A stretch of 39,018 bases of DNA from Psammoneis japonica (GCA_008632985.1 QPGO01000363.1:1-39018), one strand, 5' to 3'; positions 8,451 to 30,621 are shown, counted from the first letter of the stretch. Notes: generated by a model not told the origin, from the letters alone. Numbers and translations: made by a program.

Positions 8451-8741
8451 CAAGAAGCGTGCAAGGAGGCGCTTACGATTCGAACCATGGTTTGTGGTCG
8501 AAACGACGACAAGGTTGCTGCCGTACTTCAACACATGGGAACCATGGAGTTTCGATCGGGTGACTTTGACAGCGCACAACGCTGTTTGGAAGAATTTGTG
8601 CGCATTCGCCGTGAGAATCATCAAGCCGAAAAGCACGTAGCTCGAGTTCGTGGAAAGCCATGCCAGGATTGCAAAGTGTGCTTTGTGATAACACCCAATT
8701 ATCAGGTGCATCTTACGTTGACTAGAGACTGCCCCATTTAG
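7570..8741 (+). pseudogene. TPR-repeat (kinesin light chain/nephrocystin-3-like) protein, frameshifted, 5' part TA-erased
   Basis: Repeating ~42-aa units: FQEALWICKLVHGKDHELEGAVLHEL, FEEALNIQKLRLGKDSKEVGDTLNMMG, EECLHIRRTELGDGHEKVVDAWVAIG, KEALTIRTMVCGRNDDKVAAVLQHMG. Confidence 0.8.
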
Positions 8742-8931
8742 TCTAAAAGAATGTTATCCCGCACAATCTTCTCTAACATTTGTATAGTCAACGTCAGCAG
8801 ACAGAAGTCTATGACTAAGAGTCTTCCCACATTTCAGCGTCGTGTCAATCTCGGCAACACAGAAGTGCGCGCTGTCGTTGACTTGGACACCGACATGAAG
8901 ACGTGTTGGGCCCCCCTTGCGTTCAACAAAT

Positions 8932-9336
8932 TCAATTACCGTCGCCATCCATTGCAGTATCTGGTGCGCAGCCATCAGCGCTGTCCATCGTCAACGGCGC
9001 AGCATCAACGCCAGTCATCATTCCGACGACCTGCTTGAGACATTCCATGTTCCGCTCCTTGTGTTGGTCGTTGATCTGTTGGATACCTTTTCGATTGCCG
9101 CTGATGCAGGTTTCCAACGCCTGGTTATTCTTGTCCTGCGTGTCGGCCAATGCCTGCTTCATTGCCTGGCTGTTCTTAGCCTGCGTGTCCTTTCGAGCTT
9201 CATCATTTGCAGATGACAAAGCAGCGGCAAGAGTGTTGGTTTGTTGGGTGTTATTTCCCATCATTCTTTCCATCATATCAAACAAATGCTCATTCCGATG
9301 GCGTTGGGGTGTCTCTCCGGTGCCAGTAGCGTGCAT
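8932..9336 (-). pseudogene. Truncated 134-aa derivative of the 872-aa RCC1-repeat gene
   Basis: MHA is joined in frame to TGTGETPQRHRNEHLF...DTAMDGD, matching the 30622..33240 protein. The C-terminal domain is lost. Confidence 0.85.
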
Positions 9337-9554
9337 GATTTGAATAAAGAGCCGATAAACCGCGGAGCGAGTGGTCGTTGTTACTGTAGCCCTACCGGTA
9401 TTGTTTGAGTGTTGCTGTGAGCGCGGAGGGGGGGGATTGTGCGACGGTGGATGGCTTGAACCTCATGCGTAGATTCTACGCAGAAAATGTACTGAAAAAA
9501 TGATGCATTCTCACTCGCAAAACTTTATGTGTGTATACGTTCTGAATAAATACA

Positions 9555-9705
9555 TTGCGATGTTTTCGTCACGCGAAATTAATGAATGTGTTCGGTCTTT
9601 AATAACACATTGCGATGTTTTCGTCACGAAAAACGATGTTTTCGTCACGCGATAATCAATGAATGTATCCCTGCTTTAAGTACACATTGCGATGTTTTCG
9701 TCACG
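9555..9705. repeat. Four copies of (TTG)CGATGTTTTCGTCACG
   Basis: Copies at 9555, 9610, 9634 and 9687. A near-identical array lies at 33430-33580. Confidence 0.95.
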
Positions 9706-10611
9706 GATTCAATATATACAGTTTGCATACTACGAAATGCTAATCAATTGGGCGACTCCGTTCGCGCAGCCGCCAATCACGTAGAACCACGTAGAATTTG
9801 TACCAAATGCCGTTGCACGTTCCTTTTTTTCTCCCCTCCACCTCCGATCAGTGGTGCTTTGTACCGTACCGTACGAGTCGAGTAAGTAAGAAGCAATTGA
9901 TCAGTACACAGCATGGAGATCGAAATGGGTATTTCAACCTTTGCTTCCAAGCAGCATGCTGAATTCATGGCGGCATCCAAGGCACGGTATTCCATAAATT
10001 TGTGGTGCACGAGGGTAAGGCAAAAAGAAATATGATGTTTATGGAAAAGAAGTAATCCCACTTGAAATGTGTGCATGTTATCCTTGGTTGACATTAACGG
10101 AAACATGGCTCGCCTTGATTCACTTGCAGTGTTGAGCGACGAGGAGAATGGCCAGAAAGTTGAGGGCAACAACACGATCATAGAGGATACTGAATTGCAC
10201 CAAAAAAACGCAAAGTAAAGAGTGAAAAGTCTTCTCAAACTACCGTAGTAGTCAAGACGATTACGCATCAAAACCTGCGCCAACAGATAGAAAGAGGGTG
10301 CGATATCTCAGTTGACCGAATGGGTCGGCCAATATGTTGCTGAAAAGGTTGTTGCAATGCTACTTAATTTTGGAAGAATGCAGTAGCGAGGGACGAGGAA
10401 ATGATGGTAAAGCTATGGAGAAAAATGTCACATTGCCACCAATTACAGAGAAAACAGTTCGACCCGACTTTTTCGAGTTTGTCCTATCCAAAGAGAACGC
10501 AGATACGAGCATGGCGATCAAGGAAATCTGCGTTTGGCGTGGGTTTCGCATTCTCTGCCGACGAACGATTATATTTATCTGACCGATTTTTTTTTTCTTT
10601 TTTATCCTCCA

Positions 10612-11208
10612 GTTTTTCATAGGCGGCTCGTAAGAACAAAGATAAGCAGTGCAGTTCCACCAGACTGTGCTCCCAAATCTAAGCCTCTGATTTTTGATGA
10701 GGACATGACTTTCAATGTCGACCCGAACCGTGATGTAGAGTACGTACGAGGAGAAGTCATCGGATTCTGTGAGGTTACAGAGCGACAGTTTGGACTAGGG
10801 GAACCGTATGATTCTGAAAATGGACGTGGAAAAGCCGTGGTCAAGAGCGCTCGCAAGAGTGGTATCGGTTCTAATCTTGTAGATGCATGTGAGAATGCTG
10901 TGATCGAATGGGACGAAAACTGTTCACGTAGATACAATGAGATTATTCTGGAAGTGGAAGCAGCTATTCCCAAGGCGCTGGATTTCGATGAAAAAAGAGG
11001 GTACAAATCAGTGTTTGACAATCCGGCAAGCCGAAGATTTGATACGAGCGGATTTGTCTTGCGTCGTGTACAGTGTAACAAGATTTGCATGCGCAAGACA
11101 CTCGATTTTCGTCGTGCCCTAAAGGAGAATGAAAAAGACAAAGCAACCCTCGGCGACTTGGGGAAGAATATATTTGGAAAGCTTAACATGTTTCAAAGCC
11201 GCAGCTAG
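10612..11208 (+). pseudogene. GNAT-family N-acetyltransferase, probably with an internal deletion
   Basis: GEVIGFCEV...AVVKSARKSGIGSNLVDACE...EIILEVEAAIPKALDFDEKRGY contains the acetyl-CoA motif A (RxxGxG) and the C-terminal 'A..FY.KRGY' motif. The expected '...xNL' strand before AVVK seems to be missing. A polypyrimidine tract ending in CAG (to ~10612) precedes it. Confidence 0.75.
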
Positions 11209-11373
11209 TCTATCATTTGAAGATTGTGCAGAAGACTTATCAATAGTGGCGAATCCATCACGGAAACAATTCTGGATTCGCCAGCACTGCATCAACTGAA
11301 GTCGTATCAGACAAAAGGTCGTCTGTGTCTTTGCAGCGACTGCTCGTCTCTACTTGTGAAGGATCCTTGTGAC

Positions 11374-12400
11374 TTAAGCTTTGTATTCCTCTTCGTCTGA
11401 AATCTCTAAATTGAGCAAGGCTTGTTCAAACGCTGCATCATCCAGCTCTTCTAGCTTCTTCTTATCCGCCGAGACACTTGCCACTTTCTCGTTTAGAAGA
11501 CTTGTTATGTCCAGAGCTGCAAGCTGTTGCTCAAACAAAACGTCTTGGATATGCTTACAGATCTCCGGTGGTAGTGGCACTGGCGCCCCGCGGAACTGCA
11601 TCATTCGGCACTCGAGGATCATGACAAGACTGGACACACGATTTGCTCTGCAGATCAACCGTCCACAAAATGTTGTTGCTCTTGTGTGCACGGCCTGTCC
11701 GCTCACACCATCGATCACGGCACATTTTGATGGGTGATGGACTTGGGACTGTCAGCATTGTCACTGTCGTTGCATGTGCTCTCATCCAGAGACCAAACCT
11801 GAATGGCGCCCTCGACACCACCACGAGTTCCAAGTTTGTGAAGAACGAAATCATCTGGCAAGGGAAAAGGTGAATTTTCGACTCCAGATGAAGACACAAA
11901 GCTCCTGCTTTTGGCTTTTGATTTGCTGGGATGCGACGAGCCATGTTGAAGCAGCTCGGCTTCAGCATCCTGCTGTTGTAAAATTGGAAAGTCCATCAGA
12001 GCACCAAGAGCAAAACATGAGATGTTTCAGCCTTCACCTCTCACTTTTTGTTTCACACGAATCCAACAATCGCTCCACGCAACTTGCCACATCTTCTTTT
12101 GCCAACCTCTCCAACGCGTCGCCATTGTCAAGATTGGCATTCTTTAATTTCCACTTCATGTCAGGGACGTAAAAGCACGTGTTGTCAAAACCATCAGGAA
12201 ATGGAAATTGGTTGCCAGACCCCACTCTCAGTGAGGCAAATGCTGGCTTTCCAAATTTCAATGAACCAAGCAACCGTGCTGAAAGAGTCATCGCTTTCGT
12301 GCACAGATGCCCAAATCAATGAAGCAAGTCTTTTGCTGAGTTCTTGGAGGTGTGACAAGCAAGTGAAGGAACTCAACATGTTGCACAGTGGACCTGGATT
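11374..12400 (-). pseudogene. PRIMPOL: PrimPol (primase-polymerase) C-terminal half, frameshifted and largely TA-erased
   Basis: KTCFIDLGICARKR..(F)RLLGSLKFGK compares with PrimPol FVDLGVYTRNRNFRL..SSK.GK. The UL52-type zinc finger RWCERTGRAHKSNNILWTVDL..KSCVQSCHDP(E)CRMMQFRGAPVPLP compares with RWCENIGRAHKSNNIM..VDL....YQKCHDP.C. Confidence 0.85.
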
Positions 12401-12595
12401 TGATTGCTGCTGCTCTGCAGGACAGAGCCAGGGTTGGCGCCAACGATGCTCCAGTGTGCAGCCTGCTCAGCAAAAAATTGGTCTTTGACAGCCAGGAGTG
12501 GCCCTTCATCAAGCCACTCAATTGGGCCATGTAGGAGGGGAGTGGATGCCAGGGGCTTTCTTTCCTCTTGTCATGACCCTGAAGAGGCTGGCCAA

Positions 12596-12830
12596 GCTGC
12601 CCCGCAAAAGAACTCCGGAAAACCAAATTTACGCAGAAGGAGTGCGCCAGGGCCCCAGCAGAAATGCCAAATGAGTCCGGAGTGTCCAGAAACTGCGTAG
12701 AATCCATCGTAGAATCAGCGCCAGGGATGTCAAAAAATCACAAAATTCCGGACTTGTTTGGCAGTTCCACTGGGGCCCTGGCACTTCTTCTGCATAAATT
12801 TGGTTTTCCGGAGTTCTTTTGCGGGGTGGC
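12596..12830. repeat. Foldback/MITE-like inverted repeat (~85-bp arms, ~65-bp spacer)
   Basis: 12596-12681 (gctgccccgcaaaagaactccggaaaaccaaatttacgcagaagg...gtccgga) is the reverse complement of 12747-12830, with mostly transition differences and a small indel. Confidence 0.9.
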
Positions 12831-15800
12831 AAGGTGCAGCTGCCACTCAGAAGAGCTGCACACATGCCGAGAATGCTGCCATGACATGCGCTGGATGTGC
12901 TCACTTTGCTCTTGACTGACAAGTCCTCCACCACCTCCTGAAAGCAAAAGACAAACTCCATGATCTTGGAGAGCCAGCGCAGCTGGCTGAGACCAAGCAA
13001 GTTGCAGACTTCCTCAAATGAACATCTGACCCACAACATCAAGTCATCAGGAAGCAGCTGGCCAAAGGGATGCATTTGCTCTTGGTTGGCTTTTCATGTG
13101 CAGCTGTCTGTGGCCCTTGTGCTGCAGGGAACTCAACTGTGAACTCTCCAGTCATGGATCTGACTTTTTCTGTGGGCTGGTTGCAATCCCCAGCATTGTT
13201 CTCTGCCTGGTTCAACAACAACAAAATGAAACTGCAACACTTGCTTTCAATGCATGTGAGAAGCACAGCAGCATGTTTCCTTCATTGTCATGAGACCTGC
13301 TGCCCCTCTGCTTTTCTCACTGCAGTCATTCTGGACAATGTGGCCATTGGTTGACACTGCCTGGAAAGTTTGATGGTTCCCTTTCCCATGCCTTTGTGTT
13401 GTCCTTGAATTTCCCAATGCAAAAATCCTCCACAACCTTGCTTTTGACAGACCAACACACGAGGGGAAAGGATCAGCAAAATTGCTCCACAGTGGACAAG
13501 AGGCAGGTTCAACATTTCCACATTGGCATGAAAGGCATGAAATGCTGAGATTGAGAACAAAAACCAAAGAAAATCAAGACACAAAAGGGGGCACAGAGAA
13601 GCCAATTTGAATGTGGACATTGCCGCCTGTGCAGCAAGAGGACAAAACCAGCCTTGTGCAATGTCTCCTTTGCAACTCTTGGTTGACAGTCAAAGGGAAA
13701 AAAACACAAGCCATCCAGAGTCCAGAAAAACATCATTTTTGGAACTCCACAAGTCCATGCCTGTTCTCAAATCTCCAGCACCTGGGGATTGCTTGACAAG
13801 CTGATGCTTGTCATGACTGCCGCCAATGCAAGTCACATGACTCTGGATCAAACAAAGAGCTGTGTCATCCTGGATGACCCTTTTCTCCGCTGCAATGTGC
13901 GGAAGAACACAGCAGACATGCTCTGTGGCCACCTGGGCAATTGACAATTTCAGCCATCATGGTTCTGAGTGATGCTTTTGCCCACTGCCACAATTCCTTC
14001 AGTTTTGCACACAACACATCAAGCCCACTTCATGCAACTGAGATTGACACATTTGAGTGCTGTCTGAAACAAAGCTGCTTCAAGTGTTGATGAAAACTGA
14101 AAACCCAAATGAGCTGAAATGAGCCATTGTCCAGCAGCTTTGGATGGAGCAATGTCTTGCAACTTGCAACTTGAGTTGCTCTCTGATCTTCTGTCATGAA
14201 TCTGTGGCACAGGTTGCTTCTGTCCACATCTCTTCCTCATCTTGTTGCTTCAGTCTTGAAATGCGGGCATGGCAGTTGTCACCAATTGCTGGACAACGAC
14301 AATTTTGTTCCACGTTCTGGACTCAGCAGGAGCAACACCTGTGCAGCTGTCTTTTCTTCTGGTGGTTTGGCACTGTGTGTTGCAGTTTGGACAGCAAACA
14401 GCAGATTGCAACTCTCACAACCAATGGTGGAGCATTCCTGTGCAACATTTTTCTGGGGGCAAACAGCAAGTTTTTTCTCGATGGCACACTGCAGCATTGG
14501 CACACTTTCTTTCCTTTGTTGAAACATGTGGCATTTTTGGTTGAAACCAGCCCATGACATCTTGTTTTCCACTTGCAAACATGTGGTGGGCCCCCTAAAA
14601 AGAAACCCCACGTCAGTGCTTGACCAACCAGCGTGAACATCTGGGGGCAACTCCACCCACACTGCCACTTTTGACATGTCGCTCTCAACGAGTGCATGAT
14701 GTGCCTTTTTGTGCACTTTGGTCATGGAGGCATTTGCGACCTTTGATTGGGTGGAGACAACAACAGCAAAAAGGCATGAGAAGCACAGCAATGTGAGTGA
14801 AAGCATCCAAAGGAAAAAGTTGAGCGGCACAACCGCTGTGCCACATGTTTCTGATGTGACTTGGAAAGATGCTGTGCAGTTGAGTTGCTCACCCACATGG
14901 CCCCTCCATGCAGACTCTGGCTCGTGGCATGCAGTGGTGCATGCCATGCACCAGTGCTCACGTCATCAGCACAGGCACTCACATGGCCTTGGCACTCAGT
15001 GCAGGCAGCAAGCAGCGGGTGCTCGCACAGCATCAGCAATCAGCAAGCAAGCAAGCACATGGCAGCACCGTTGCTCACATCATCAGCACAGGCACTTGCA
15101 CAGCATGGCGCAGGCACTTGCTTGTTGCGTGTGATGCAATCGCTGGCAGCCAATGGAGTTTTTTCTGTGCAACCATGATGAACGCGCAATGATTCTGACA
15201 GCAACAAGTTGGTTTGTTCTCAACAGTGCATTGTGGAACTGCCATGTGTTCTTTTTTTCATTGAAGCACGCAACCTTTTTGGTTGAAAACAGTGCGAACA
15301 TCTTTTCATCGGCTTGCAAACATGAACCACCCAAACATGAGATCCAGGAAGAAAAAAGGATGCAGGCAGGGAGACCACGACACAAAAGCCTTTTCTGGCT
15401 TTATGAAAAACATCATGAGTTTGTGTCTCAGTTTCCACACAGACATTTGTTTGAGGCTCTTGTGAAGGAACAATCTGCCAGAGATGAGTGCATCACAGAG
15501 AAAGAGATTGCCATCCAAGAAAACAAGCAAAAAAGATCCTCGCATTTCTTCAAGCTGTTGTCTTGAAAACAGTTGGAGATGCCGGAAAGGTGATGCCCAG
15601 CTCCAGTGGACTGTTGCAGTCCAAGTCGAGAAACGGTCCCACTGCAAGTGACAATGCTGTTGATGTCAAAATGAAAGACACCAGTGACATTGACACATCC
15701 TGGGGCACTGGCTCAACAACAATGGAGGTTAGAGGGGGCTGGCAACACATTGAATGGAAGTGCTTCCTGTGCTGTCACCACCTTCAAAACTGAGCCGTTG

Positions 15801-17049
15801 TGCAGTGTTCCCTCTGCATGTCATGATGGCAACAATCAAAAAGGCAGTTTGCATGAAAACAAGACTGAGCACTCAAATGCCATCATTGAGTCAGACGAAG
15901 GGCCATCCAGTGGTGTTTTGGAACTGTCTTTGTACATTCTGTCGATGTGCAGTGCAAAAAAGCAACACTGGTGCATTCCAAAAAAGAGATTTGGCAAAAA
16001 CCAGCTCAAAAATCTGTTGTTGTTCCTCTTGAAATCAACGTGAATTGTTTGTTTGTGCTGTTGCCCACTTCACCCCCAAGTTGCCTGCTGTCTGGCATTT
16101 GCCTTTTGTGTGTTGCGCGACACTGTGATCTTGGGTTGGCTGAACATTGTGGTGCACAACTGACAACCGTGAAGATGCCGAGCACGCATTTTTCACAGAT
16201 CAGCAGTTGATCTCTGCATCTCAACCATGGAGGCTAAAAGGTGAAGCACAAAGAGAAGGAAGGCTTTTCAAGACACGTCTTTGTCATCAAGTGATGAATC
16301 AGAGAGTGGCTCATCTCAGATCACAAAGAGGAAGATGGCCAAGGCCAAGAAAGACAACCCGGCTGATTCCGCATTTAATTTCCAGTTTGCACCTGTGATT
16401 CTTCAATTTTCCAGTCACTGGAAAGAAGAAAGTTTCATTCAATGACAACTTCTTGGAGGGGAAAGTGACAATTGGTCCTGATGATGATTGGACCGCATTG
16501 CACTCAGCCGCAAAGGGTTTGACAATGGAAGAGAAGCTTGAGGCACTGCAAACAAAAGAGAAGAGAGAGCCAATCCCATGTCTCTTGAATTTGAGCTGGT
16601 TGAAGCACTCATTGTGGGGGAAGGTGACATTGTGTGTGGCAGTGACAAGTGTGAAGCAGGTGGGGAAAATTGGGGAAACATTGGTCAGTCGCACAATGTC
16701 AACAGCTCTGGCACGTGCATCATGCTGCGCTCCATCTGTCAAACATTGTGGCAGGCTGTCTGTCAGCCATTGTGCCAGGTGCACCACACTGCATTCTGTC
16801 CATTGACCATTGCAGCAAGTGCAACAAACTCTGTTCTAATCTGCTGGAAACATTGCAAATTTAAGTTAGAGACGGTGCCTCTTGCTTGCCGCCACGGCAA
16901 GCACATGCCTCCATTGCCTCGTGTGCTCTGAGATTGGGCCCTGGTCTTTGCAGCTCGGTTTCCTTCTCAAAAGAGGCCGCTGAAGGGCAATGCTTGCAAC
17001 TGGGGACCTGACAATGACAGCAAGTTGAGCGAGCCATTTTGGGAGTGAT

Positions 17050-17960
17050 GCTGTCAAGAGCGCCAAGGTTGTGCTCAACCCACCTTGTGCTCCCATGTCA
17101 CTTCAAGCATTTTTTGCAGTGACCAGACATGATCATTTCAGTGGGATTCAAGCCAGGGCAGTGTGGGGAAATGAAGACAAAAGTGGCTTTCTTTTCTTCA
17201 ATGATGTCCATGATGCACTGTGAGTGGTGAGTTGATGCATTGTTGAGCACAACAACGGACCTTGGCTCCCAGTGCAAGGAGCCAGTTTCTCTTTGAACCA
17301 AAGCTCAAATTGCTCCTGACAAACTTTTCCAATGAGTGGGTTGCTCTCTTCATCTCTTGCATTGCCCTGAGGAACAATGTCGCAGGCCTCCTTTGTGAAT
17401 CCTTTGATGTCACAAGCTGCAAGCAATGAATGCCAAGCCCATTTGTTGATCTCAAAGGATGTTGATCGAACAGGAGTTGCACCTCGTCAAGACCACCAGC
17501 ACCATCGTCTTGATGAATTTTGATCTTTGTGTGACTCATCCAAGTGTGACAGCATTTCAGGTCAACAAGCTGCAGCCTTCAATGCTTGGAGATGCGACTG
17601 CATTTCTTTCTTGTCCATTTCCATGGCCTTGTTTGTCACAACGTGAAGGGAGCATCACACTTCCTTTCTAAGTTTCTCATGCATCTGGGCTGGGCTCCAT
17701 TTCTTGTGAGCAACCTGGTTCATTTGGATCACTGGCTCATCCAGATGAAGCTGGGCTCTTGACCAACAATGTTCCTCACAGGATGTGGTGCCCCCCTCAG
17801 TCCACAAATGTTGCTTGTGTCCAGTGTGAGATCTGGCCATCCATTTGTCAGTTTCTGCTGGAGTCTCACCACAGAGAAGACAGTGATCAAAACATCATTG
17901 ACATGTCAAAGAATCATGGGTGCTCCTTGGCAGATGGAGATCAGACATGTTCCAGCCACA
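17050..17960 (-). mobile_element. Degenerate IS630/Tc1-mariner (DDE_3) transposase
   Basis: Across frames: ..HLDESHKDQNSSRR.., LLAACDIKGF, QFELWFKEKLAP, EPRSVVVLNNASTHH (cf. VVVLDNASIH), and FISPHCPGLNPTEM (cf. PPYSPDLNPIE). The sequence has stops, frameshifts and Tyr-to-His/Cys changes. Confidence 0.85.
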
Positions 17961-18914
17961 CGCGAACCAAATTGTGCACGAAAACAACACATTCGCACAA
18001 GTTTTGCGTGGTCCCCAACTTGCTGCAATCAAGCTTTCACCACCACCAAAAGCACAGATTTGTCCAAATGTAAAATGTCTCGCAACACTGACAAGACTTG
18101 CATGAGTGTTGCAGCATCATTGTTTTTGTGCAATGTGTGTTTTTCATTGCAACAAAAGAATCCCAACACAATGGATGATTTTTGGCAAAATTGTTGCCGT
18201 CACTTTGATGTTGTCACAAACAATTTTTTCTGCGATGCTTGCTCTCTGGCATGAGCTCCAGTGCAAATCTCTGTGTGCAATGCACTGACGTGCAATCCAC
18301 ATTGAGTCCACTGAGGGAGTTTGTGATGCATGTCCCAGGAGGACCATGAAATCAAGAAATGCTGTTTGTTTGTTCCAAATGCCTCTTTCCCCCAACATTG
18401 CCCGCTGTCTGACAACAGCCTTTTGTGTCTCAAACAACATCGTGCACTTGGTGTTGTTGAAAATGATGGCCCACAAACAACATTCAGTGACCTGCCAAGC
18501 ATGGATTTTCTTCTCTCTGGCAGTCATCGGCCAAGCAAAAGAGCAACCTAAATGGACTGTGTTTTGTTGAACTGGCCAATTCATTGCCACAAAGATCAAC
18601 CCTGCTCTGCACAGGTGTGGTTGCCGAGGTTTTCAGCAGGCAATCATTTCATCAATTCTTGTTGGCCTTGGGTGAAAATGCCGTCCGCGTCTGAGCTGGT
18701 GCTAAAACTCAGTGCTCAAACCCATGTCAGCAAGCGAGTGATCAACAGCTGGAGTGTGCTGGCTGCAGCGCAACTTCAGAGTGCAGCCACAGGGCTGCAA
18801 CCATGTGGTGACTGCATGGAGACCTTTGTAGAATGGCAAACAACCATGATGACATTGCACTGCACTTTCTGCCCAAAGCCAGCCAATGACATGAATCCCC
18901 TTGATGATGCCAAT

Positions 18915-20140
18915 CAAGACTCACTTGTGTCTTGACAACATTCTCTCCCACCTGACATCCAATGCCTCCAGGTGCTCAAACAATGGTTCAAAAGGCAAGC
19001 ACCTGATTTGTTTCAAAGCTGTGACCCAACTTCCAGTGGCAGGTTTGGGCACCTCAGCAGCATTCTTGGGTTCTTCCCAGGGCTTCAAAACTGGCAGAGA
19101 ATCTTGAAGAATGTCCATCAAATGCATTGACATGCCAAACACTTTCTTTCTCCAACATTTGGCCTTCCACTCAATTGCAGAGTGGCAGTCAGACAGAATT
19201 GGGTCCAGAAACAACAAAACCTTTTCAAAAACCATGCTCGCCTGAGTCTTTGCTGGTGCAGTCAAGCGTGCCGACAACTTCAAAACTCTCTCCCCCCAAT
19301 GTCCAACACTCGATTCCATCTCAGAGAGATGGTTGGACAAGATTGGGTTCCGAAAAACAGCAAAAAATTGTTGTGTTCCTGCAGAACAGGTGCCTGAGTC
19401 TCTGGGTTTGCATGATGACGTTGTTCAAAATTGCATCTGGAAGTTTCCGCCAAAGCTGAAATGCTTCTGACTTGATGTCTGAGAAAAGCTGCTGTGTGCA
19501 CCCAACAAGAAGGCAAACTGGATCTCCAAAAATGTTGTGAGCGCATCTTGGAACGGGGCTGACTTGGTCTCAACCATGCTTTTGGGAGCAGTGTTGTGAA
19601 AGAGTTGCTGGAGGCTGTCGTTGGAGTCGCCATTGCAGTCCTGAACAAAATGTTCATGGACACAACACTTGTTGGTGTCTTCTGCTGGTGCAATCGTTGG
19701 CATGGCATTGCTCAGGAGGTCTTGGGCATGACTCGGAGACATGTTGCCATCATCAAAATGAGCCCAAAAGCTGGAAATGATGATGGCATTTTTGAAGGGG
19801 ACAGTGCTGGGAGCAGCATCGCTGATGATGGCATGGCAGCAGCTGGAGGCAGTGTCAACATCTGAGCATCTGTCGTCCAAAAACTTGTGTGGTTGCCTTG
19901 GTCAACAAGGTGCTGATGCAGCACTTTGTCGCATGAACAAACAAGGCAGAGAGAGGGTCAATGATTGCACCAGCACTCATGGCGGCAATGATGGCAAGGA
20001 CAAAGTTCATGATTTCTTTCATGATGGACTGTGAGCTGATGAGCAGTTCAGAAATTGTGAGAGCACTCGAGGCGCCGTGGCACAAGACACATGAAATCCA
20101 TGTGGCGCGGGCCATTTCCCCATTGCGCTGAAGTTCAAAG
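18915..20140 (-). pseudogene. Hypermutated copy of the 4747..5955 gene and its flanks
   Basis: Collinear with ~4690-5975 (e.g. LQDSLPVLKPWEEP, MNFVLAIIAAMSAGAII). TA is systematically replaced by TG/CA and many CG by TG/CA, and there are frameshifts. Confidence 0.95.
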
Positions 20141-21049
20141 AAAGGTTGTCACACACACGACACACACACACTCACAAAATTGACAACGTTTTTGGCACAG
20201 TTGGCGTGTGCATCAAGTTCAGCCAATTGTGCTGCTTCAAGTTTCATGCTCCAATTTCCAATCCGCTGCCGCCATGTTGGCTGCACCACTGACAGCAGGG
20301 CTGCTTGCTGTTTGCTGTTTGCTGTCACTCAAATTGCAGAAGAAACCATGTTTGATGTTTTTTGAACCTTTTGGTGGGCTGCAATGACACACTGCTGTGC
20401 TGCCTCAATCCCAGTTTTTTCTGTTGTGGAGGCTGCACTGTTGCTGGTTGAGAAAAGTCATTGCACTTGTGGGGCACTCACTGACACCCACCAATGGTGC
20501 AATTTTCACACTTGTTGCTGGTTTGAGGGCAACAAGTTTGCTTCATGGGCCTCAGTTTGCCACCAGCAACAAATGTCATGATGTCACACAAGCCCAAAAT
20601 GCCATTTCTGGTTCAACCTGCAATGCACACACAAGTGGCAACTTGTGTTTGAATTGAGATGTGGCCGTTGCACCATGGTCACATTGTCCCCCTTTTTTGG
20701 CTGCAAGGCTGCAATGCAACAAGACAACACAGTGCAGCACAGCTGCAGCAATTGCCAGCCACAGCTCAGCACTGTTGCAGGTTGGGGGGAATGACTTGGA
20801 CAGCCATCAATGTTGTGCATGTTTGCAGCAGGTTTTGGGGGGACATGAGTGCATGCTCACATTCAGAGGACAAAGGAGACAGCTGGCTCAGGAGAATGTG
20901 CGCTGAATGTTGCTGGCATGACAGGGGGAGCAACATCATCTGGGATGCCAACAATCTGGGTCTGACTGTCTGCCACAATCTGGGTGTTTCTTGACTTTAA
21001 TGCCAGCGTGTTGTCAACTTGTGAGCCAATTCTCTCCTTAAATGTAACA

Positions 21050-21445
21050 GACGTGTTCCAGCTCTAGGTGGGACCTCGTACTGCTGAACTGTGACATGAT
21101 TATTTTTTATCATCCGTCGTATGTTTCGCACGTACATATCTACGTGTTCTATTATAAAAAACTGTTCCACACTGCCTGTTTTGCGAAGCCAAAGGCTTTC
21201 TGTTATCTGCACTTATGTCAATAAAAATGCGCTGGGTATATTCTTTAATGTCTAAAGAATATACCCGGGCATACTGTAAAGAATGTACTTCAAGTGTGGA
21301 GGAGGAGATACGTTCGCAAAATTGCCTCTTTTTCTGTTGGCGATCATTCATATATCCATTGCTTAATAATTTTACTACGGAGCTCGCACGTAGAATTCTA
21401 CGGGCCCAATGTCACAAAAAGTCCCACCTAGGACTGGAACCCGTC
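21050..21445. mobile_element. Unmutated AT-rich island with terminal inverted repeats and a central hairpin (MITE-like)
   Basis: 21055-21074 (gttccagctctaggtgggac) and 21421-21440 (gtcccacctaggactggaac) match 18/20 as inverted repeats. A perfect 14-bp-arm hairpin lies at 21234-21266, close to the centre. TA content is normal. Confidence 0.55.
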
Positions 21446-21859
21446 AACATGAGAACTGCGCAAGTTTGTGAGCTTCTAAAACCCAAATCGCTTCTCACTT
21501 TTAAGTGCGATCATTCTTTTCACACAATGCTGACCTGCGCCCCAATTGACATTTGCGGTTTCTTGTTCTTTGAACACAAATGTTGCTGCTTGTAATCCAC
21601 CCTCCTTTTCCACCAACTCGTCCCACATTTTGTCTCTTTGCTGTGTCGTTTTCAAATCCAAACCCCCAATTGCCACACGTTCTTGCATCCAAACCGCATT
21701 GCAGAATGTTTTTTTTTATTTTCGCTTGTCTGGATTTTGTTGCTTGTTTCAAATTACGTTTGCACACCAGTTTGGTTGGTGGCCATTGCGGCATTTGCTG
21801 CCGCTCCGTTGCCTGCAGCCACCACCTGCAATGGTGGGTCCTCTCCCATCGGCGCCACC

Positions 21860-22882
21860 CACCCTTCCTCTCTCTCCTTTTTTCCTCTCTTTTGCGTTTC
21901 TTGTTTTCCTCCTGAGACAAGTTTGTCTTTTCTCTCGCCTTCTCTCCTTGAACCATGCACAGAATCCCTGGTTGTTCTCTCTGTCTTTCACCACCCACTG
22001 GCACAGATCATTGCACTTCTTGATCCCCTCCTTGCTCCATCCTTGGTTCCTCTTTGCCGACTCCCCCACCACCTGCGCTGTGCACTTTGCAGGAGCAGCG
22101 TCTTTCACAGTTGGCTTTCTTCTCCTTGCAACATTTTCTTCCTTTTCCAATTTCTCTGCCATGTCCTTCACCTTGTTGCAGTGGTTCAAGTGCACTGGCA
22201 GAGCAAACGCCTCTGACAAAATGGAAAGCCACTTCTGAAGCATGTTGGTTGTGCTTCCACCAAACTGCGCTTGTCCCACCACTGTTGGCACCACAGTTTC
22301 CAAGAACCATGCGTGTGTGTCCTTGTCATTTCTTCCCTTTGTCAAATCTTTGCAACCCACCAGCGATCCCTCTAAAGCAGCAACTGCACAGACAAAAGCA
22401 AAGGAAGTGACACTCATCCCATCAGACAATCGCCTCCAACACAATCAATGGCACGCACACATCTGCTCACCTGTCATTCTCCTCCCAATGTTGTCCTGCA
22501 CATTGCTCCTCTTTCAGTTGAGTTTGGTCCTGAGCACCTCTTTGCATTCTTCCCAGAACGCCTCCGGTGAAGACGCCATGCTCCTCAACTCCTGCAGAAC
22601 CAATTTCATGCAATCTCCTCCTGCGGCGAGTTCATGATCGAAGATTGTGAACTTGTGACATGGCCAAACACTCTCATTGATGACCTTTGTCAACATCAAT
22701 GCCATCAATTTCTTGCCCACCGCCGGTGCACGATCCAACACAAGACATCCCTCTGTGGGAGTCACCACCGAACTTGAATCCCCACCTGCGCATTGGAATC
22801 TGTTCAATTCCCCATGTTCGTTTCTTTGTGCGTGCAACAAGGCCGCCACCGCAGGACTCATGGTGACTTCATGTGACACCAC
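21860..22882 (-). pseudogene. Transposon-associated conserved hypothetical gene (possibly intron-containing), TA-erased
   Basis: VWPCHKF...EAFWEECKEVLRTKLN*KRSNV, then HAWFLETVVPTVVG...LSEAFAL..LN...AKCT....RNQGWSKEGIKKCNDLCQWVVKDR. This matches the 'SDEAFALL..EN..KYT..GWS.EG...FN.L...V..DR' pattern I associate with accessory ORFs of diatom DNA transposons (from memory). Confidence 0.45.
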
Positions 22883-24464
22883 ACAGACAAACCCAATTCT
22901 GTTGGTTCATCAGCAACTCTTTGTCATGTCCTTTCTCAACCTCACTTGCCGCTGGAAGTTGCGCTTCCTCCCTCCGTCACTCCTGTGAGAACCGTGTCCT
23001 CCATCTTTTTTGCCTTCCCAGTGGCCTCCTCTCATTTGGAACTTCCGTCCTTTCCTGTCACTTTGTGAAAGGCAAGCCAAGAAATGAGTGCACTTTGCAT
23101 GTGATTTTCTCGGTTTTGTCGTTGCTCGCATGTCCTCTCTCGATTCAAACAGGTCTTTGCATCATTTTTGAGTGCTCATTCCCAACCCCATGTTTGAATT
23201 TCTGTCAACGTTCCACTGTTTTGAATTGTGCACCTTTGTCAGCCAATCCAATGCACCAATGAAGATTGCAACATCATTCAAATCAATGTCAAACAATGTG
23301 TTGTGTCTCCTCACATTGATGCGTGCATTGCGCCTGCTTCCTGATGCAACATCTGTTTCATTTGGTTTGTCAAGTCGTGTCAAACCTCCCATTTGTTTGT
23401 GCAAATCCATGTCGCTCATTGTCTCATGTCAATTTGTCCCTGTCTTGGTGGGTCATTCTCTCCACTTCCCTGACACCACATCTCTCCAATTGCTCTCTCT
23501 GTCACCCAAATTGTCCAATCCACTTTCAATGGCTGCCAAAGAGGGGTGTCATTGTCACTGAGATGTGGTTGTTGTGAGTCGTTCCCGTCACAGGAACGTG
23601 GGTTCCTTCTGTTGCAATCACATGCCGCCAATTGATGATCAAATTGGTCGTTTTGCTGGTGGTGGTGTGGTGGAATCACATGGTGGTGCGGCAAGCTTTG
23701 CCTTCTTTGCCAAGGTTGTTTGTAACCCCACTCTCCTTGCGGCCCAAATTCGAAGCCCTTTTAATTTCTTCGACGTTGGTGGTGGTGTTGGCGGTTTTGC
23801 AATTGCCTGTCGTTTGCTTGTTCCTGCCTGCAATGCCTGCAGCATCGAGTTCCACCGCCCCCATCATGATTTGGGCTCTCAGTGATGTGATGCCATCTGG
23901 CATGACCACACCAGTCGCTGTCCTGCCCTGATCAATCAGGACTTCCTCTCTGAAGATGATGCTGTGCATCGGTTGCACCGTCTGAACAACTTAAAGATTT
24001 TCTTCAACAACTGCAATGGGCGAATGCTTTTTGACAACAATGCGACACAGAACCAACTCGAGGAGACACTGTCCAACGAGTGTCCTGAAGGTGCCATCGT
24101 TGTTTCACTGGACATGATGTTTTGTGTGCACACCCACAAATGGAGGCATGAAGCATTCTTTGTTCCTGCCTGTCCAGACGATCTGTCATGGGGAGGTGGT
24201 GTCGACAGGCACCTGCTTCACAAGCACACCAAGAAAAGAGACGATGCCGTGGAGCCAAGGCATTCCACCAGGAATGACCCAGGGTCTGTCATCAAACAAA
24301 AATTCAAGCCTGCCAAAAGTGGGTGACTTTTCAATTCCCCTTTGTTCACAATGCAACTTTCTTCTGTGTGAGCAATGCATTGTTGATTGGCCCTTTGCAC
24401 AAACCCACTTTTTGCCTGCACCAACTTGCTGCTTCGCTGGTTTCGCATTCCAACAACTGCTTGT

Positions 24465-25100
24465 TCACATGCTTGCCATGTCAAAATTGTGGACTGGACA
24501 TGCCATGTTCCTTCGATCCAAATTTGTTTTGTCAGGCAAAGCTCGGTGCAACATTCTTGCATCAAAAACAAATGCAGTGCCTGCTTCTCCAACCAGCAAT
24601 TGCCCCTCCAAACCCAGCCTGACCAGCTGTCTTTCGCGTTCCTTCTCATTCAATGTCACCTCACAACCATCCGGCCATGTCTCAACTGCACCATTGTGAT
24701 CCGTTGTGTCATCGAGGAACAGAAACATGGTGAAAATTTTGTTGCCAGGCAACAATTTTGTTTCCATGAAATCATGATGAATTTCCCCCTTTGACCAGAA
24801 GTTTGATCTTGAACTTGAAGCAGGAGCATTTGCTGCTGTGTGCCGGGACATCTTTCTGCAAAATCACCTGCCAGGGGAAAGCCAGGAATCAACTCCAACA
24901 TTTTTTCTGCCAACTCAACACCTTCCGCCTTGTCCTTTTTGTCAATGGCAAACTCACCCACAAAGCGGTGTCCTTCCTTCTCTCGCTTGCCACTTGGTGC
25001 CTTGTTTGCCAGCGTTGTTGTCTGGTTGAGCAGGGGTTGTGGTGATTTGAATTTTTGCAAGCAGCCTTTTTTTCCTTCCTGGTGCACTCTTTCTTTGGAC
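24465..25100 (-). pseudogene. 2-oxoglutarate/Fe(II) dioxygenase (PhyH-like), frameshifted and TA-erased
   Basis: GEIHHD (HxD)...FTMFLFLDDTTDHNGAVETWPDG...LVGEAGTAFVFDARMLHRALPDKTNLDR (distal His, then Arg). This is the canonical PhyH-family DSBH motif order. Confidence 0.7.
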
Positions 25101-25659
25101 CCAGCTGTCTCACTCTTTACGACATGAGATTTCATCTCGCCCAGTTGTGCCAGCAACTTGCCATGTTTCTGACATGACGTTGTCAGCCAACGGGCAAATT
25201 TCCAGCACCCGCCAACAGAACACTTCCACGCCATTCTCTGAAAATGCCTGTTCCACCAAATCAAATGGTGCCTGGTCTTTTTTTTTAAGTGGAACAGACC
25301 CAATTCAGCGAAAGTCTGCATCCATCACTGTGCAACGAAAACGGCTTTCTTGCTGAACATGTGTTGCCAATGGCAGTCCATCTGTCGGGTGCACCACAGA
25401 TGCTTTTTTCATAAATGGTCCCATGTGACATGATCTTCATTGATCCTGTTTGCTGCATGATCTCATCAAATGGGTCATCCTGGCCATCTCAAAAGCGTGG
25501 AAAACAATTTTGTTGCACACTGTCTTGCCAGTGTTGTTGTGAGACATTTTCATGTCGCCACCGCGGCAGACACAAAGGAACAGCTGCCATCCACCATTCA
25601 TTCCGCACCACAAACAAACTCTTTTGGAAGAATGTGTGTGATGAACAATTGCAAATGAC

Positions 25660-25860
25660 AGGTGTCACTTTTTTGTCAACACACCCATCTGTCAACAGAG
25701 CAATTTGGCATCACTTTTTCATTGTTGCAACCATGTGTCGACAAAGTAATTTGGTGTCACTTTTCTGTTGTTGCACACACATGTCAACAGAAGAATTTGG
25801 TGTCAGTTTTTTGTCAATGCGTGCATCTGTTAACACACACCTTTGGCATCACTTTTTTGT
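25660..25860. repeat. Degenerate ~44-bp tandem array (tgtc.ac.a...aatttgg(CA/TG)tcactttt)
   Basis: About five units contain ggtgtcactttt or ttggcatcactttt and tgtcaacag/tgtcgacaa at roughly 43-46 bp spacing. Confidence 0.75.
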
Positions 25861-25879
25861 TCACACACTTGACACCAGC

Positions 25880-27005
25880 CTGCACATTGTCATGACATTG
25901 AGCACATCTCCCGCAGCAAACCACACTCTCCCGAATCTTGTCCAAGTCGCTGATCAACTCATGTTGAGCAGCGAACAGATGACGTTTGGGCAACTCCATC
26001 TCTTGTCCTCCGCAGCCTTGTCATTCTCTGCTGGGTGAGTGGACTGGAGGCACATTGAAATCCTCATCGGGTGCGATGTCACGCGGCGGGCCAAGAGGGT
26101 TGTGTTGATCGAGGGAGGAAACAGGCTCTTCTGTCAGAAGGGAAATTGAAGGGGACCCACAACTGCCATCGCAACGGCGGCTCCAATGAACTCAGGAACT
26201 TCTGCAGGACTGTCCTCTCCAAAGGCAGACACACCATCATCTGCAAACAAAACAAATCGGCAGGCGTTTTGGGAGGCTGCACTGGCGGCAGCAACGTTGG
26301 CGGCTGAGCGCAATTGACCAGAGCATCTGACGGAGGGTGGGCACAGCCCATTTCCAGCAGAGGGAGGACAAGCTGGAGAAGAGCTGTCCGTTGGTGTGGG
26401 AGGAGATGGAGCTGGATTCCAAAGGACTTTGGGGAGGGGAGGAGGGGGTTCATCGTCAGAGAAACCAAACCAAGCAGGATCATCATGGTCATCCAGTGAT
26501 TCATCATGGTCGTCCAGTGATTCATTGTCTGGAGGGGGAAGTGCATTGGCGGCAGCAGAAGATGCGGCATGCAGGCGAAGGGACATTTCCTCCTTTTCAT
26601 GGCAGGGCAAGCACTTCTGTAGATGAAGGGTGATGTTGGAAAAGGGGACATGGCAATGGGGGCATTTGGGTTTGTTGGTGTTGGATCCAAGGGAGCCAAC
26701 GGAGGCGGAATCCAGAGGATGAGAGGAAAGAGATGTTCCGCCGGATGAAGAAGACAATTGGGCTGTGCGGCGCAACTGTGTCAATGGGGGATGGAGACCA
26801 GATGCTGCAGTGCAGTGCCAAGATGGGTGATGTTGCACATTGTTTTTGGAGTCAAATCCCCATGTTGTCCACAATGAGGACAACCAAAAGACTTGGTGAA
26901 AATGGCGGAACGGAGGCAGTTAGTTGCGATGTGCCTGCTGAGACCACGTTCGGAAAAGAAACCAGTTTGTTTGCACCATGGACAAACAAGACCATCAGAC
27001 GACAT
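25880..27005 (-). mobile_element. N-terminus of a probable Plavaka (CACTA-like) transposase: C2H2-type zinc fingers plus acidic linker, truncated before the catalytic core
   Basis: MSSDGLVCPWCKQTGFFSERGLSRHIATNC..GCPHC..; KCPHCHVPFSNITLHLQKCLPC; acidic DNESLDDHDESLDDHDD; then ELPKRHLFAAQHELISDLDKIR. This architecture is recalled from diatom Plavaka-type transposases. No catalytic domain is present, so the family call is inference. Confidence 0.4.
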
Positions 27006-27776
27006 GGCCGATGTGCAGAGACAAAGGAGTTGAGAAGAGAATCGAAAGGAAACAGCGTGTGCAGCAACAATCACTTGGGGACATGGTGAGGGCAGAAACA
27101 TGGAGAAACAACATGCAATCGACATGGAAGGCATCAAAGGATGGAATGGGCAGGGAGAGAAAATTGAGAAGACAATTTTGAATCTACATTGACGGACACA
27201 GGCGGCGATTTTGATCCAGAAAGTTGACCAACACACAATCCAGAAACCAAAACAGAACCAAATGTGCACACAAGGCTTGTCGGATGGGGGGGGCAAACAG
27301 TTAAATTGAGGAAAACAGATGTTTGTTGTTGAACATTTCAGAAAAGCTGACTTGACAAATCAGCACGATCTTGGATCAAAGGGAGTCAATGTCGGGTTTT
27401 GTTTCAAGAAATCTTGATGGCCAGTGCGACACCTGGATTGTTGGTGTCCCAGATGATTTCTGGTTTTGTTCACTGCACACAAAAAACTGGCAATGCCCAA
27501 AGCCACCAATGTCCCAAATGTTTTTGCTGGTGCAAGCCAGCAGTTGAAACTTTCAATTTGCCAGCAATGGCCATGTTGCAGGCAATCTTGCAGGCTGTGT
27601 TGTGTTGGGGGTTGGTTGGCAGCAACTCCAAGCTTCTTCAACAAAAACCACACAGGAAAGCAAACTCACAAAGGCACATTTTTGTGAAGTTTGCTCATTG
27701 ATGATGTGTGTGTGTTCAAGCAGCACAGAGCAATGGGAGGCAAGCATCGTGATGTGTGCACTTTGCAGCCCTGAGT

Positions 27777-28162
27777 TTGGCCCCCCATCATGTCATTCCC
27801 TCACTTTGTCAGAGCATCTTTGCCAGTGAGTTGTGCGCCAATGTTCCCATCTTCAATTCTTTGCTGGGGCACAACCCAGCAGGATGCACCACAAACAGAT
27901 GGCAGGCAGCAAGGGCACAGCAACTCACCACACTCACCACCCCATCATTTTCAATTGACCACATTCTGCTGATGGTTGGGGAGGGGTTGGTCCCCCACCA
28001 TGTGTTGTTCCTTCACTTTGTCAGAGAATCTTTGCCAGTGAGTCGTGCACAATGTGGGTCCCCATTTCAATTCTTTGCTGGGAAACAGGGTGCACCACAA
28101 ACAGACTGCAGGCAGCAAGGGCACACAGCAACTCACCAACCCATCATTTTCAATTGACCACA
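27777..28162. repeat. Tandem duplication of a ~200-bp unit
   Basis: 27777-27963 and 27987-28162 share ttgg.cccc...tcactttgtcagag.atctttgccagtgag...caattctttgctggg...gcaccacaaacaga..gcaggcagcaagggcac...ccatcattttcaattgaccaca. Confidence 0.9.
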
Positions 28163-30089
28163 CAATGTGCACCCACATTCTGCCAACAGTTGGGCAGACA
28201 TTGGGGTGTGCAACAACATTTGGCCTGCAGATTCCTGTGCACAAGCTCTGCAGCAAAATTGTTTGGCAGCTAAAATGTGGATGATTGCCAACAGAAAAAG
28301 AGGCAATTTCAGCCAATGTTCTTCACAAAACACCTGTCTTCCAGCATGGAATCCTCTCCTCTGCCACCTGCTGCCTTGCTTTGTTCTTTCTTGCCTTCAA
28401 CTCACAAATCACAAAGCATGGCAATGTGTGTGCTGGCCCTCTTCCTGCTCTCCATGTCACTCTCAGGTCCCAGCCATTCAGTTTTCCACTGCAGTTTCCA
28501 AAACAAGTCTTGATGACAAACCAGGTCTTCTTGAGTCAAGCAACATGCTCCATCAGCCAACAAACAGTCAAAGTCAAAGGGTCGCTCTGGCAGCAGCAAA
28601 GTTGCTGAGTCTCATTGAGCAAAGCAAGGCCAGAAGGAATCCCACCATGGCACAGTCGTGCTTCAAGAATGCCATTCGCCACCACATGTCGTGTTTGGCT
28701 TGTTGCAAGTCACGCTGGATGGATTTGATCTGGGCCACGCACTCGTTTTTCAACAAACTCAACGAGCATCAACGACAAGGACAACTGCTCAAGCTTGACG
28801 AGAAGAAGCATTTCGAGTTCAGAGTTGATCTTGAGCTTCATGCCCAAGGGCTTCAACCAGGAGAACTGCTTCTCAGTTCAAAAAACATTCTCCTGAAACA
28901 ACGCGAGGAGTTAAAAGGAAGGAGTGTCAGCAGCAGGATTGGCATCAATGCAAACAAGTTCTTTGACATTTAATGTGCAGCACTGAAGAACACATGGTCC
29001 TCTTCTGCCTGCACTTGCCTTGTCACTGCTGTGTTGACTGCGGTGGCGTTTTAGTCTCTCGGCAATTGTGCCCTTTGCTCATCATCTGCTGCTGATCGTT
29101 GCATTGTTTCGGGTTGATTGATGAGTGATGCGTGATGCCTGATTTTCAGTCGGCAAAAAAATTGTCTCAAACATTCATTTTGTGTGTGTTTTTATGATGG
29201 GGTCTTTCAGTGCAAAGTTGGAGCCATGGAAGAATCAAAGGATCATTGTCAGCAATGGTGGGCAGGTCCAGAGCACTGTGAAAAATTTTGATGCACAATG
29301 ACAGCTCTGACATGTGAGAAGAAAGAGGCTGGATGGTGGAAGGCATTGAGATTTGATGGTCTTCTTTCACATCTGCCTTGCTTCTGTTGGCCCTGTTCGT
29401 CCAATGCCAAAAGAAGGAATGGCGGCATTGTGTGTTCAAAAGCAATGATGATGGCCAAGCAAAACAAATCCAAGTGTGAAGTTCCTTGACAAAAAACAGA
29501 GCAGTGGCTGCATCCACATGTGCTGTGCAAGCTGTGTGCAAGCAACAATGAAGTGCAAACAAAATGTTGCTTGCACAGTGGGATTGATGAGATTTTGCAG
29601 TCTGCCGTCATCCATCCAAATGCTGCGGCCATCTTGTGTTCTGTCAGCCCAAGCTTGAGGCTGGGTTGAAGAATTGTTGGAAATCCAGTTGAAGCTGCAC
29701 GTGATCAAATGGGCAGTTCTTCCACTTGTCCAGTCTTCTGAGTGCTTCCAGGATTTTGAGGTCAAGTTTTGATGTTGTGCAAGGCAGAATTTCTGTGTTG
29801 GGCAACAACAAGTCCTTCATGCTGCTGCAGCATTTCTCTTCTTTCTGCAACAAGTCTTTTGCATGGAGAGGAGTGAGCGAGCTGGAAGGGGAGTGTTGAC
29901 GTTGAAGCAAGGCAATGAATGAAACTGTGCCACATGTTTTGCAAAGGGAGCATTATAAATGAATGAACAGTGTGGTGGTTCGGATTTGACACTGATGGTC
30001 TTTGAAAGATTCGAGGGATTTGTGAAACACCACAGATCGTGACTTTCAAAACGTGAGCATTGTGGTGAGGTCATTCCAACCGACTACGA

Positions 30090-30343
30090 GGCAATTGACA
30101 ATTTGGACCATTGTGACATGGGAGACGGAACCCACAATGCAAGCGTACAAGGAGGCGCTTGCGATTCGAACCATGGTTTATAGTCGAAACAACGAAAAGT
30201 TGGCTGCCGTACTTCAACACATGGGAACCACGGAGTTTCGATCGGGTGACTTTGACAGCGCAAAACGCTGTTTGGAAGAATTTGTACGTATCCGCCGTGA
30301 GAATCAAGCCGAAAAGGACGTAGCTACACAGCTAGTAGTCTAA
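30090..30343 (+). pseudogene. TPR fragment, less-mutated paralog of 8430-8640
   Basis: QAYKEALAIRTMVYSRNNEKLAAVLQHMG compares with QEACKEALTIRTMVCGRNDDKVAAVLQHMG. Confidence 0.85.
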
Positions 30344-30621
30344 GAACATCGCTATTCTTCTCCCATAACCCTCAAGTTTCGTGGAAAGCCATGCCAGAAC
30401 TGCAAATATGATTTGTAATCACATCCAATTATCAGATACATAAAACGTTGACTAGTGACTACCCCATTTAGTCTAAAAAAATGTTATCCCGCACAAACTT
30501 CTCTAACACATGTATTGTCAACGTCAGCAGACAGAAGTCTATGACTAAGAGTCTTCCTATATTTCATCAGCGTCTTGTCAATCTCGGTAATACAGAAGTG
30601 CGCGCTGTCTTTGGTCTCCAC

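Follow-up and report, generated by a model that had tools for sequence, protein, structure and literature searches.

The window analysed here, a stretch of 39,018 nucleotides of DNA from Psammoneis japonica (GCA_008632985.1, QPGO01000363.1:1-39018), contains five domains from which the dinucleotide TpA (TA) has almost disappeared. The pattern of change indicates that a mutator working at the DNA level has acted in place on repeat-type DNA, converting TpA to TpG or CpA until almost no TA is left. The changes at TpA are A:T to G:C transitions that are equally likely on either strand. Ordinary decay of CpG to TpG or CpA has taken place in the same domains and is several-fold slower. The gene-bearing parts of the window are spared from TA loss.

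The five domains, delimited by profiling the window in 500-base steps and by listing where TA occurs, total 23,224 of the 39,018 bases (59.5%), in agreement with the figure of roughly 60% in the initial annotation of this DNA. From base composition they should contain 1529 TA and 1369 CG; they have 65 and 513. The observed-to-expected ratio (O/E) of TA is 0.035-0.10 within the domains and 0.58-0.62 outside, that of CG is 0.24-0.68 compared with 1.0-1.09, and those of TG and CA within the domains rise to 1.49-1.83. Since the G+C gained as TA disappears makes up for that lost as CG decays, G+C is almost unchanged, at 0.48-0.53 in the TA-free blocks and 0.45-0.48 in the unmutated parts. The domains lie at 1-1138 (TA O/E 0.048, CG 0.63), 6116-8400 (0.048 and 0.24), 11573-20997 (0.035 and 0.29), 21600-29953 (0.036 and 0.39) and 36997-39018, the last being a younger, TA-poor domain (0.10 and 0.68) in which there are tandem repeats and a palindrome of 490 bases.

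The conversion can be followed base by base in two collinear copies of one unit, both on the minus strand. Copy A (4603-6073) is unmutated, with a TA O/E of about 0.5-0.9 and a 411-codon open frame (4747-5982, minus strand) whose start is signal-peptide-like, while copy B (18829-20282) is its broken, hypermutated counterpart. Their alignment has 1526 columns, of which 127 are gapped, and the identity over the rest is 81.8%. Among the 55 TA of copy A that are aligned without gaps, 24 read CA and 23 read TG in copy B, seven have undergone other changes and one is kept. Exactly one base is altered in each converted TA, and the TG and CA outcomes are equally frequent (23:24). Transitions of A/T are found at 47 of 112 sites within TpA compared with 58 of 620 other A/T sites (Fisher p 1.2e-15). 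The 93 CG of copy A have become CA in 34 cases and TG in 32, with 19 kept, and transitions of C/G occur at 67/188 sites within CpG compared with 25/479 elsewhere (p 5e-22). The frequency of A/T transitions outside TpA (58/620) also exceeds that of C/G transitions outside CpG (25/479; p 0.011), which may reflect weak off-target activity or ordinary GC to AT change in the copy A lineage. In addition, copy B has frame-breaking indels, among them two large deletions that remove 41 and 27 bases, three CGA to TGA stops and 58 transversions relative to copy A.

The initial annotation had described copy B as a collinear copy of an intact gene at about 4690-5975 in which every TA is converted, by A to G change at TpA on either strand. 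The collinearity and the direction stand, the five conversions quoted there are all present as written, the 23 TG and 24 CA agree with action on either strand, and a tabulation of substitutions by dinucleotide context, which it had proposed, gives the enrichment at TpA described above. The word "every" does not hold, since eight of the 55 sites went another way or stayed, and the decay of CpG in the same block (66/93 CG to CA or TG) had been missed. What was called the intact gene is the open frame of copy A, which has no Pfam match and no homologue among 5293 candidates. Several distinct read-contigs pile up over it, so that copy A probably belongs to a family of repeats and is not a host gene present only once. 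At a single place as many as six distinct contigs differ from the window, and the summed read-contig depth, which is not equal to copy number, is 1000-1800 over copy A compared with about 63 over nearby single-looking TA-free DNA. No convincing terminal repeats were found around the unit in the region examined (900-6400).

Four independent lines of evidence agree in supporting TA, and likewise CG, as the ancestral state and TG/CA as the derived one. All four bear out the direction first proposed, from TA to TG or CA, which had been read from the intact open frame and from conserved Tyr turning into Cys or His. The first comes from the codons of the A/B pair, whose polarity rests on the open frame and on codon-position evidence, since no homologue of copy A was found to serve as an outgroup. 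The 179 differences in 384 aligned codons are spread 65/53/61 over the three codon positions, as expected for accumulation in an unconstrained copy, and the 10 Tyr codons of copy A read six Cys, three His and one Ile in copy B. The second comes from the remnant of a Tc1-like DDE_3 transposase (17101-17486, minus strand), for which an HMMER search of 1.84 billion representatives gave 20 relatives; all four that were tested are DDE_3 transposases. The Tyr of the RY[TS]L motif, present in 11 of the 12 aligned relatives, is a His in the remnant, as are the Tyr of PYSP (present in 8/8 relatives) and the Tyr of xYK (6/6), and the catalytic Asp of the DNA[ST] motif reads Asn.

The third line is given by repeats within the TA-free domains. 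In the arms of two palindromes and in two tandem pairs, 11 of the 21 adjacent double differences are CA/TG doublets, and in the youngest tandem pair (38327-38432 and 38441-38546, 92.5% identical) such doublets account for six of the eight differing bases. Since a doublet takes two changes unless the two arms resolved an ancestral TA or CG separately, the doublets point to TA or CG ancestry. Large imperfect palindromes are a recurrent feature of the TA-poor DNA (37750-38241, 38376-38644 and 12600-12826); their arms are 82-89% identical and many of their differences are CA/TG doublets. The fourth line is the state of same-family transposase loci outside the window. All 80 loci found in metagenomes have a TA O/E of at least 0.36 (range 0.36-1.09, median 0.70, none of the 80 below 0.3). 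As the scan relied on intact conserved motifs and was biased against mutated copies, it shows the outside state to be TA-normal and carries no inference that the process is absent elsewhere.

The process reads the bases that flank TpA, and TTAA and other TTA/TAA sites escape. TTA/TAA is the context of 51 of the 65 TA that survive in the domains, whereas in the unmutated parts it is the context of 226 out of 609 (p 1.6e-10). Counted together with their reverse complements, the contexts TTAA, CTAA/TTAG and GTAA/TTAC occur 15, 17 and 13 times in the domains and 22, 51 and 69 times in unmutated DNA, while ATAC/GTAT, ATAT and CTAG, which occur 110, 49 and 24 times in unmutated DNA, are each reduced to zero. 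The strand on which A is followed by C is mutated somewhat more often (23/44 compared with 44/126, p 0.05), a weak preference. All six ATAA sites became TG, a rule that CTAA/TTAG sites did not obey.

Beside the TA-free domain that ends near 8100-8400 is a gradient zone (8422-9329) in which about half of the TA has gone while CpG has hardly changed. Its reference is the unmutated sequence 30113-33617, of which the segment 8422-9742 is a paralogue in shortened form; two pieces of the 30-kb copy, of about 1.7 kb and about 0.55 kb, are missing from the 8-kb copy. Moving away from the domain, TA is lost at 13 of 26 sites in 8422-8887, with one change in the reverse direction, at 7 of 14 in 8896-9329, with none in reverse, and at 3 of 23 in 9409-9742, with one in reverse. 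Over the same first two intervals CG has become TG or CA at only 2 of 30 and 2 of 25 sites. The 20 losses against one reverse change in 8422-9329 (binomial p 2e-5) make the loss one-sided, and both TpG and CpA are present among the TA outcomes of the pair (12:11). TA loss thus leaks about 1-1.3 kb into the neighbouring DNA at this edge.

Since TA is half gone where CpG is nearly intact, TA loss is several-fold faster than CpG decay and is seen before it. The same order is found across the domains, with a TA O/E of 0.10 and a CG O/E of 0.68 in 36997-39018 and a CG O/E of 0.24-0.39 in older domains. Separate targeting of TpA and CpG is not proven by this order, since two clocks of unequal speed in one silenced domain would look alike in the sequence.

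Some further features of the two paralogous segments may be described here. Each of the two copies starts immediately next to a TA-free domain, and a comparison of the DNA upstream of the duplication (7300-8435 with 29000-30125) gave no homology, the score of 36.5 being matched by a shuffled maximum of 36.0. On the minus strand of the 30-kb copy, an open frame of 909 codons (30622-33351) gives a weak match to RCC1-like domains. Upstream of the duplicated genes, both segments contain tandem units of about 72-76 bases that are 88-90% identical (9558-9705 and 33372-33580).

In contrast to the graded edge, the process comes to an abrupt halt where younger insertions begin. At 6073, the A/B homology ends on its right side together with the switch to TA-free DNA, the last dense TA being at 6056 and the next two at 6115 and 6331, and domain 6116-8400 begins no more than about 60 bases from the end of the copy A repeat unit, which indicates that sharp edges can be the borders of younger insertions. 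A second case is an unmutated element of about 400 bases with terminal inverted repeats (TIR; 21048-21449), whose 25-nt inverted ends (21050-21074 and 21421-21445) are 88% complementary. This TIR element forms an island of normal TA content (about 21000-21500) amid TA-free DNA. Since the six TA just outside it are all in the spared contexts TTAA, CTAA or GTAA, the unmutated part is the element itself. Its depth bin reads 77,084 compared with about 64 beside it, or about 1000 times that of its flanks, and in four contigs the two flanks are joined directly, with the element missing. It has the look of a highly abundant family with recent activity, similar to miniature inverted-repeat transposable elements. 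That such an abundant, TA-rich element is unmutated means either that it was inserted very recently or that the process is slow or episodic.

Only a small part of the TA-free DNA can be assigned to a family. The domain 11573-20997 includes copy B, the Tc1-like remnant and, across its left end, a primase-like remnant of the Herpes_UL52 family (11558-12317, minus strand, E 3.5e-7) which contains the word DLGIC. A pseudogene with TPR repeats (7750-8738; TPR_12, E 5e-18) lies across the right edge of domain 6116-8400; its 5' part, within the domain, is TA-free and frame-shifted, and its 3' part is half mutated. Also within TA-free DNA, the segment 17823-18423 has a summed contig depth of about 1500 compared with about 63 nearby, and is probably a repeat family of which every member is already TA-free. 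Since TAA and TAG are gone from such DNA, only TGA ends frames, and long spurious open reading frames result, for example one of 227 codons at 14282-14962. In unmutated DNA, two open frames on the minus strand (34720-35627) match Peptidase_M17 (leucine aminopeptidase; E 2e-37 and 3e-17) and are apparently exons of one host gene.

The best overall explanation combines a TpA mutator, deamination of adenine at 5'-TA and a process of the type known from Bigelowiella natans, and we consider it probable, if only just. Adenine would be converted to inosine in DNA by enzymatic deamination at 5'-TA. The candidate enzyme is a deaminase of the TadA/ADAT type or of the toxin type, which would be directed to silenced, CpG-methylated chromatin, with sequence duplication as such being no trigger. 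Transposons and stray gene copies would be killed as a result, through the change of Tyr to Cys or His and the loss of catalytic residues, and the process would be the same as the TpA hypermutation of B. natans. The TG:CA symmetry of the A/B pair, the focus on TpA, the depletion of TA throughout the domains, the four lines of evidence on direction, the flanking-base rule with its weak preference for a following C, the gradient with CpG intact, the agreement of contigs from a public run with the TA-free DNA and the likeness to the B. natans data speak in favour of this explanation. Biased gene conversion was considered as well and would not single out TpA.

Several points weigh against deamination of adenine in silenced repeats. 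Deamination of adenine would be the simplest chemistry and an adenine deaminase the most likely enzyme, yet literature searches found no natural DNA adenine deaminase with a role in genome defence. The putative tie to methylated or silenced chromatin comes solely from the CpG decay in the same domains. Strand-coherent clusters, as a processive single-strand deaminase would leave, looked suggestive by eye but failed a shuffling test (P 0.20 for 23 sites and 0.39 for 47 sites), and models in which the choice of strand is governed by a single flanking base were rejected, with a chi-square p of 0.19 for the base 5' of T and of 0.20 for that 3' of A. In a family search of the window, most of the TA-free DNA matched neither a transposon domain nor any other Pfam family. 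Since the family matches are so few, a transposon origin is established for a minor share of this DNA only, and the initial proposal that transposon-rich domains are targeted can be kept in the form of sharply bounded, repeat-type domains. Only one sample (runs X1-X3) contains the stretch; it may be the assembly's own, its library type is not on record, and no RNA data set is listed among those in which the stretch occurs. Finally, A to G on one strand and T to C on the opposite strand would give the same sequence outcome, which a thymine-directed route would fit equally well.

In the thymine-directed route, which is an improbable alternative, the T of TpA would be modified in silenced DNA, to 5-hydroxymethyluracil or a J-like base, by an oxygenase of the TET/JBP type, and would then mispair with G or undergo error-prone repair to give T to C. 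Besides its identical outcome, this route is consistent with the 23:24 symmetry, since the palindromic TpA offers a T on both strands, and in dinoflagellates 5-hydroxymethyluracil occurs preferentially at TpA. Against it, no such modified base or oxygenase is known to us in this group, and a saturating yield of T to C from a modified T would be unprecedented.

A homology trigger, in which duplication itself marks DNA for mutation as in the repeat-induced point mutation (RIP) of fungi, is just as improbable as thymine modification. Copy B and the segment at 8.4-9.3 kb both duplicate sequences elsewhere in the window, and the leakage into the flank resembles that of RIP, which is known to leak into flanks. 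However, in each pair mutation has struck one copy and left the other: the losses in the paralogous segments are almost all on one side (20 and 1, p 2e-5), and all 55 TA are retained in copy A. The TIR element and copy A, with their very high summed contig depth, are also unmutated, though both may simply be young. A RIP-like trigger of this kind is therefore not supported.

The remaining alternatives carry very little weight. The TA loss could be a by-product of repair, if T:G mismatches from deamination of 5-methylcytosine (5mC) recruited error-prone patch repair of the pol-eta type, which changes WA to WG as in somatic hypermutation. TA loss and CpG decay do occupy the same domains, and A to G change at TA is common to both systems. 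Pol eta would also raise changes of A in the AA context and leave a strand bias; the AA context is not raised (8/122 compared with 15/187 in CA and GA together, p 0.83), strand bias is missing, and TA loss stands at 50% in DNA whose CpG has hardly changed. The by-product of repair is therefore disfavoured and held very improbable, and the pol-eta candidate named at the outset is not supported.

An artefact, in which base-calling or assembly errors at modified bases turned TA and CG into TG or CA, is unlikely and hardly to be reckoned with, even with the single sample noted above. Contigs built from k-mers of the public run reproduce the TA-free DNA, one of them spanning 4301 bases (12802-17102) with 10 differences. 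The indels, 58 transversions and stop codons of copy B would not be made by base-calling errors at modified bases, and the arms of repeats are fixed for different TG and CA outcomes. As to the individual runs, X2 covers the gene-bearing parts and leaves the bins of 12414-20827 uncovered, a lack of cover that counts as no finding. Contigs of this run, which is labelled 'DNA?', (10013-10129 and 8207-11812) have a GT..AG joint that skips 115 bases; this joint may be that of a spliced transcript of a GNAT-domain gene (10411-11205), and X2 may be derived from cDNA.

The arrival of foreign DNA, for example viral DNA, already poor in TA and CG and without mutation in place, is scarcely credible; most TA-free DNA is indeed without a recognisable family, but copy B is collinear with TA-rich copy A, CA/TG doublets separate the arms of local repeats, transposase relatives outside are TA-normal and a graded edge is present. 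ADAR-like editing of transcripts followed by reverse transcription is equally hard to credit in spite of the 5' U preference that the preprint on B. natans gives as typical of ADAR (10.64898/2026.01.13.699255), since hyper-editing would be expected to leave strand-coherent clusters on transcribed retro-copies, and there are no strand-coherent runs (P 0.20 and 0.39). Moreover, the domains, of up to 9.4 kb, extend over spacers, repeats that are unrelated to one another and the remnant of a DNA transposon, and they pass gradually into flanking DNA.

Defence of the genome by targeted mutation is an established phenomenon where cytosine is the target, in RIP and with APOBEC, while a counterpart directed at adenine or TpA is described in a single preprint. 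The window adds a second lineage, a distant one, in which the process has run to saturation, and sets constraints on the enzyme: strictly TpA, with both strands equal, TTAA and other TTA/TAA sites spared and no excess in the AA context; faster than CpG decay; not triggered by duplication alone; and leaking about 1-1.3 kb. The fully counted A/B pair, the coupling of TA loss to CpG decay and the lag of the latter, the graded edge, the unmutated young insertion and the negative pol-eta test are new here. There are also practical consequences for annotation. Since their G+C is near normal, TA-free blocks are missed by GC-based screens; their few stop codons give rise to long false open reading frames, and transposon proteins within them drop below the thresholds of family searches.

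Among known systems, RIP of ascomycete fungi is similar in that local, saturating transitions inactivate repeats in sharp domains with some leakage into the flanks. Its chemistry is the opposite, as the initial annotation had recognised: RIP changes C to T and CpA to TpA and so enriches TpA, whereas TpA is destroyed in the window (65 compared with 1529 expected). RIP also mutates both duplicates, and here only one partner of each pair is affected. The CpG half of the pattern resembles ordinary decay of 5mC, with 66 of 93 CG converted in copy B and the CG O/E lowered to 0.24-0.68 from 1.0-1.09. Diatoms have DNMT5a-dependent methylation of transposons, and many have genes for DNMT4, which is related to RID (PMC9998398). 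That methylation is consistent with the CpG half; the passages on it have nothing on TpA, and decay of 5mC leaves TA loss, which is faster and is seen with CpG nearly intact, unaccounted for.

The TadA/ADAT enzymes target an A preceded by U or T, in a U-A-C context. The window shares the preceding T, and the preference for a following C is weak (p 0.05; four-way chi-square p 0.20). TadA/ADAT enzymes act on tRNA, and the adenine base editors derived from TadA are engineered to act on single-stranded DNA; we know of no natural enzyme of this type with a role in genome defence. It is a tentative and rather doubtful extension of our explanation that this alga has a natural, chromatin-directed DNA adenine deaminase, possibly active on cytosine as well, which would erase TpA from silenced repeats in a defence mirroring RIP. 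Such an enzyme would be shared with B. natans, and hence old within the stramenopile-alveolate-rhizarian group, and would be the first natural counterpart of the engineered adenine base editors.

The closest likeness is with B. natans, for which a preprint describes mutation-accumulation lines in which an integrated giant virus and a virophage are hypermutated about 1000-fold (Mettrop et al., bioRxiv preprint, 2026; 10.64898/2026.01.13.699255). There, 230 of 231 changes are A to G or T to C, all on TpA, and clusters that are poor in TpA and rich in CpA and TpG are enriched for transposon domains; an adenine deaminase was proposed (10.64898/2026.01.13.699255). The window shares the focus of transitions on TpA, the presence of both TpG and CpA and the TpA-poor clusters. 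Its domains, with a TA O/E of 0.035-0.10 and TG and CA at 1.49-1.83, fall within the cut-offs given there for such clusters (Rho TA at most 0.43 and Rho CA+TG at least 1.52; 10.64898/2026.01.13.699255). In B. natans the changes are confined to foreign or mobile DNA; the TA-free DNA here contains a transposase remnant and a primase-like remnant, with the gene parts spared, and most of it is without a family match.

The window differs from B. natans in several respects. The lineage is another one; the process has reached saturation, with a TA O/E of 0.04 compared with 0.45 in the B. natans viral region; and it covers about 60% of the window, affecting transposon remnants and duplicated segments where integrated viral DNA is affected in B. 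natans. CpG decay alongside TA loss, a flanking-base rule and a graded edge are features of the window, and the text of the preprint uses neither 'CpG' nor 'diatom'. Literature searches gave no description of TpA hypermutation in diatoms. The rates in B. natans are experimental, while those of the window are deduced from sequence. As TpA-only hypermutation is reported in that preprint (10.64898/2026.01.13.699255), the initial view that the process had not been described as a system has to be withdrawn; the window is a second and far more advanced case of the TpA hypermutation of B. natans.

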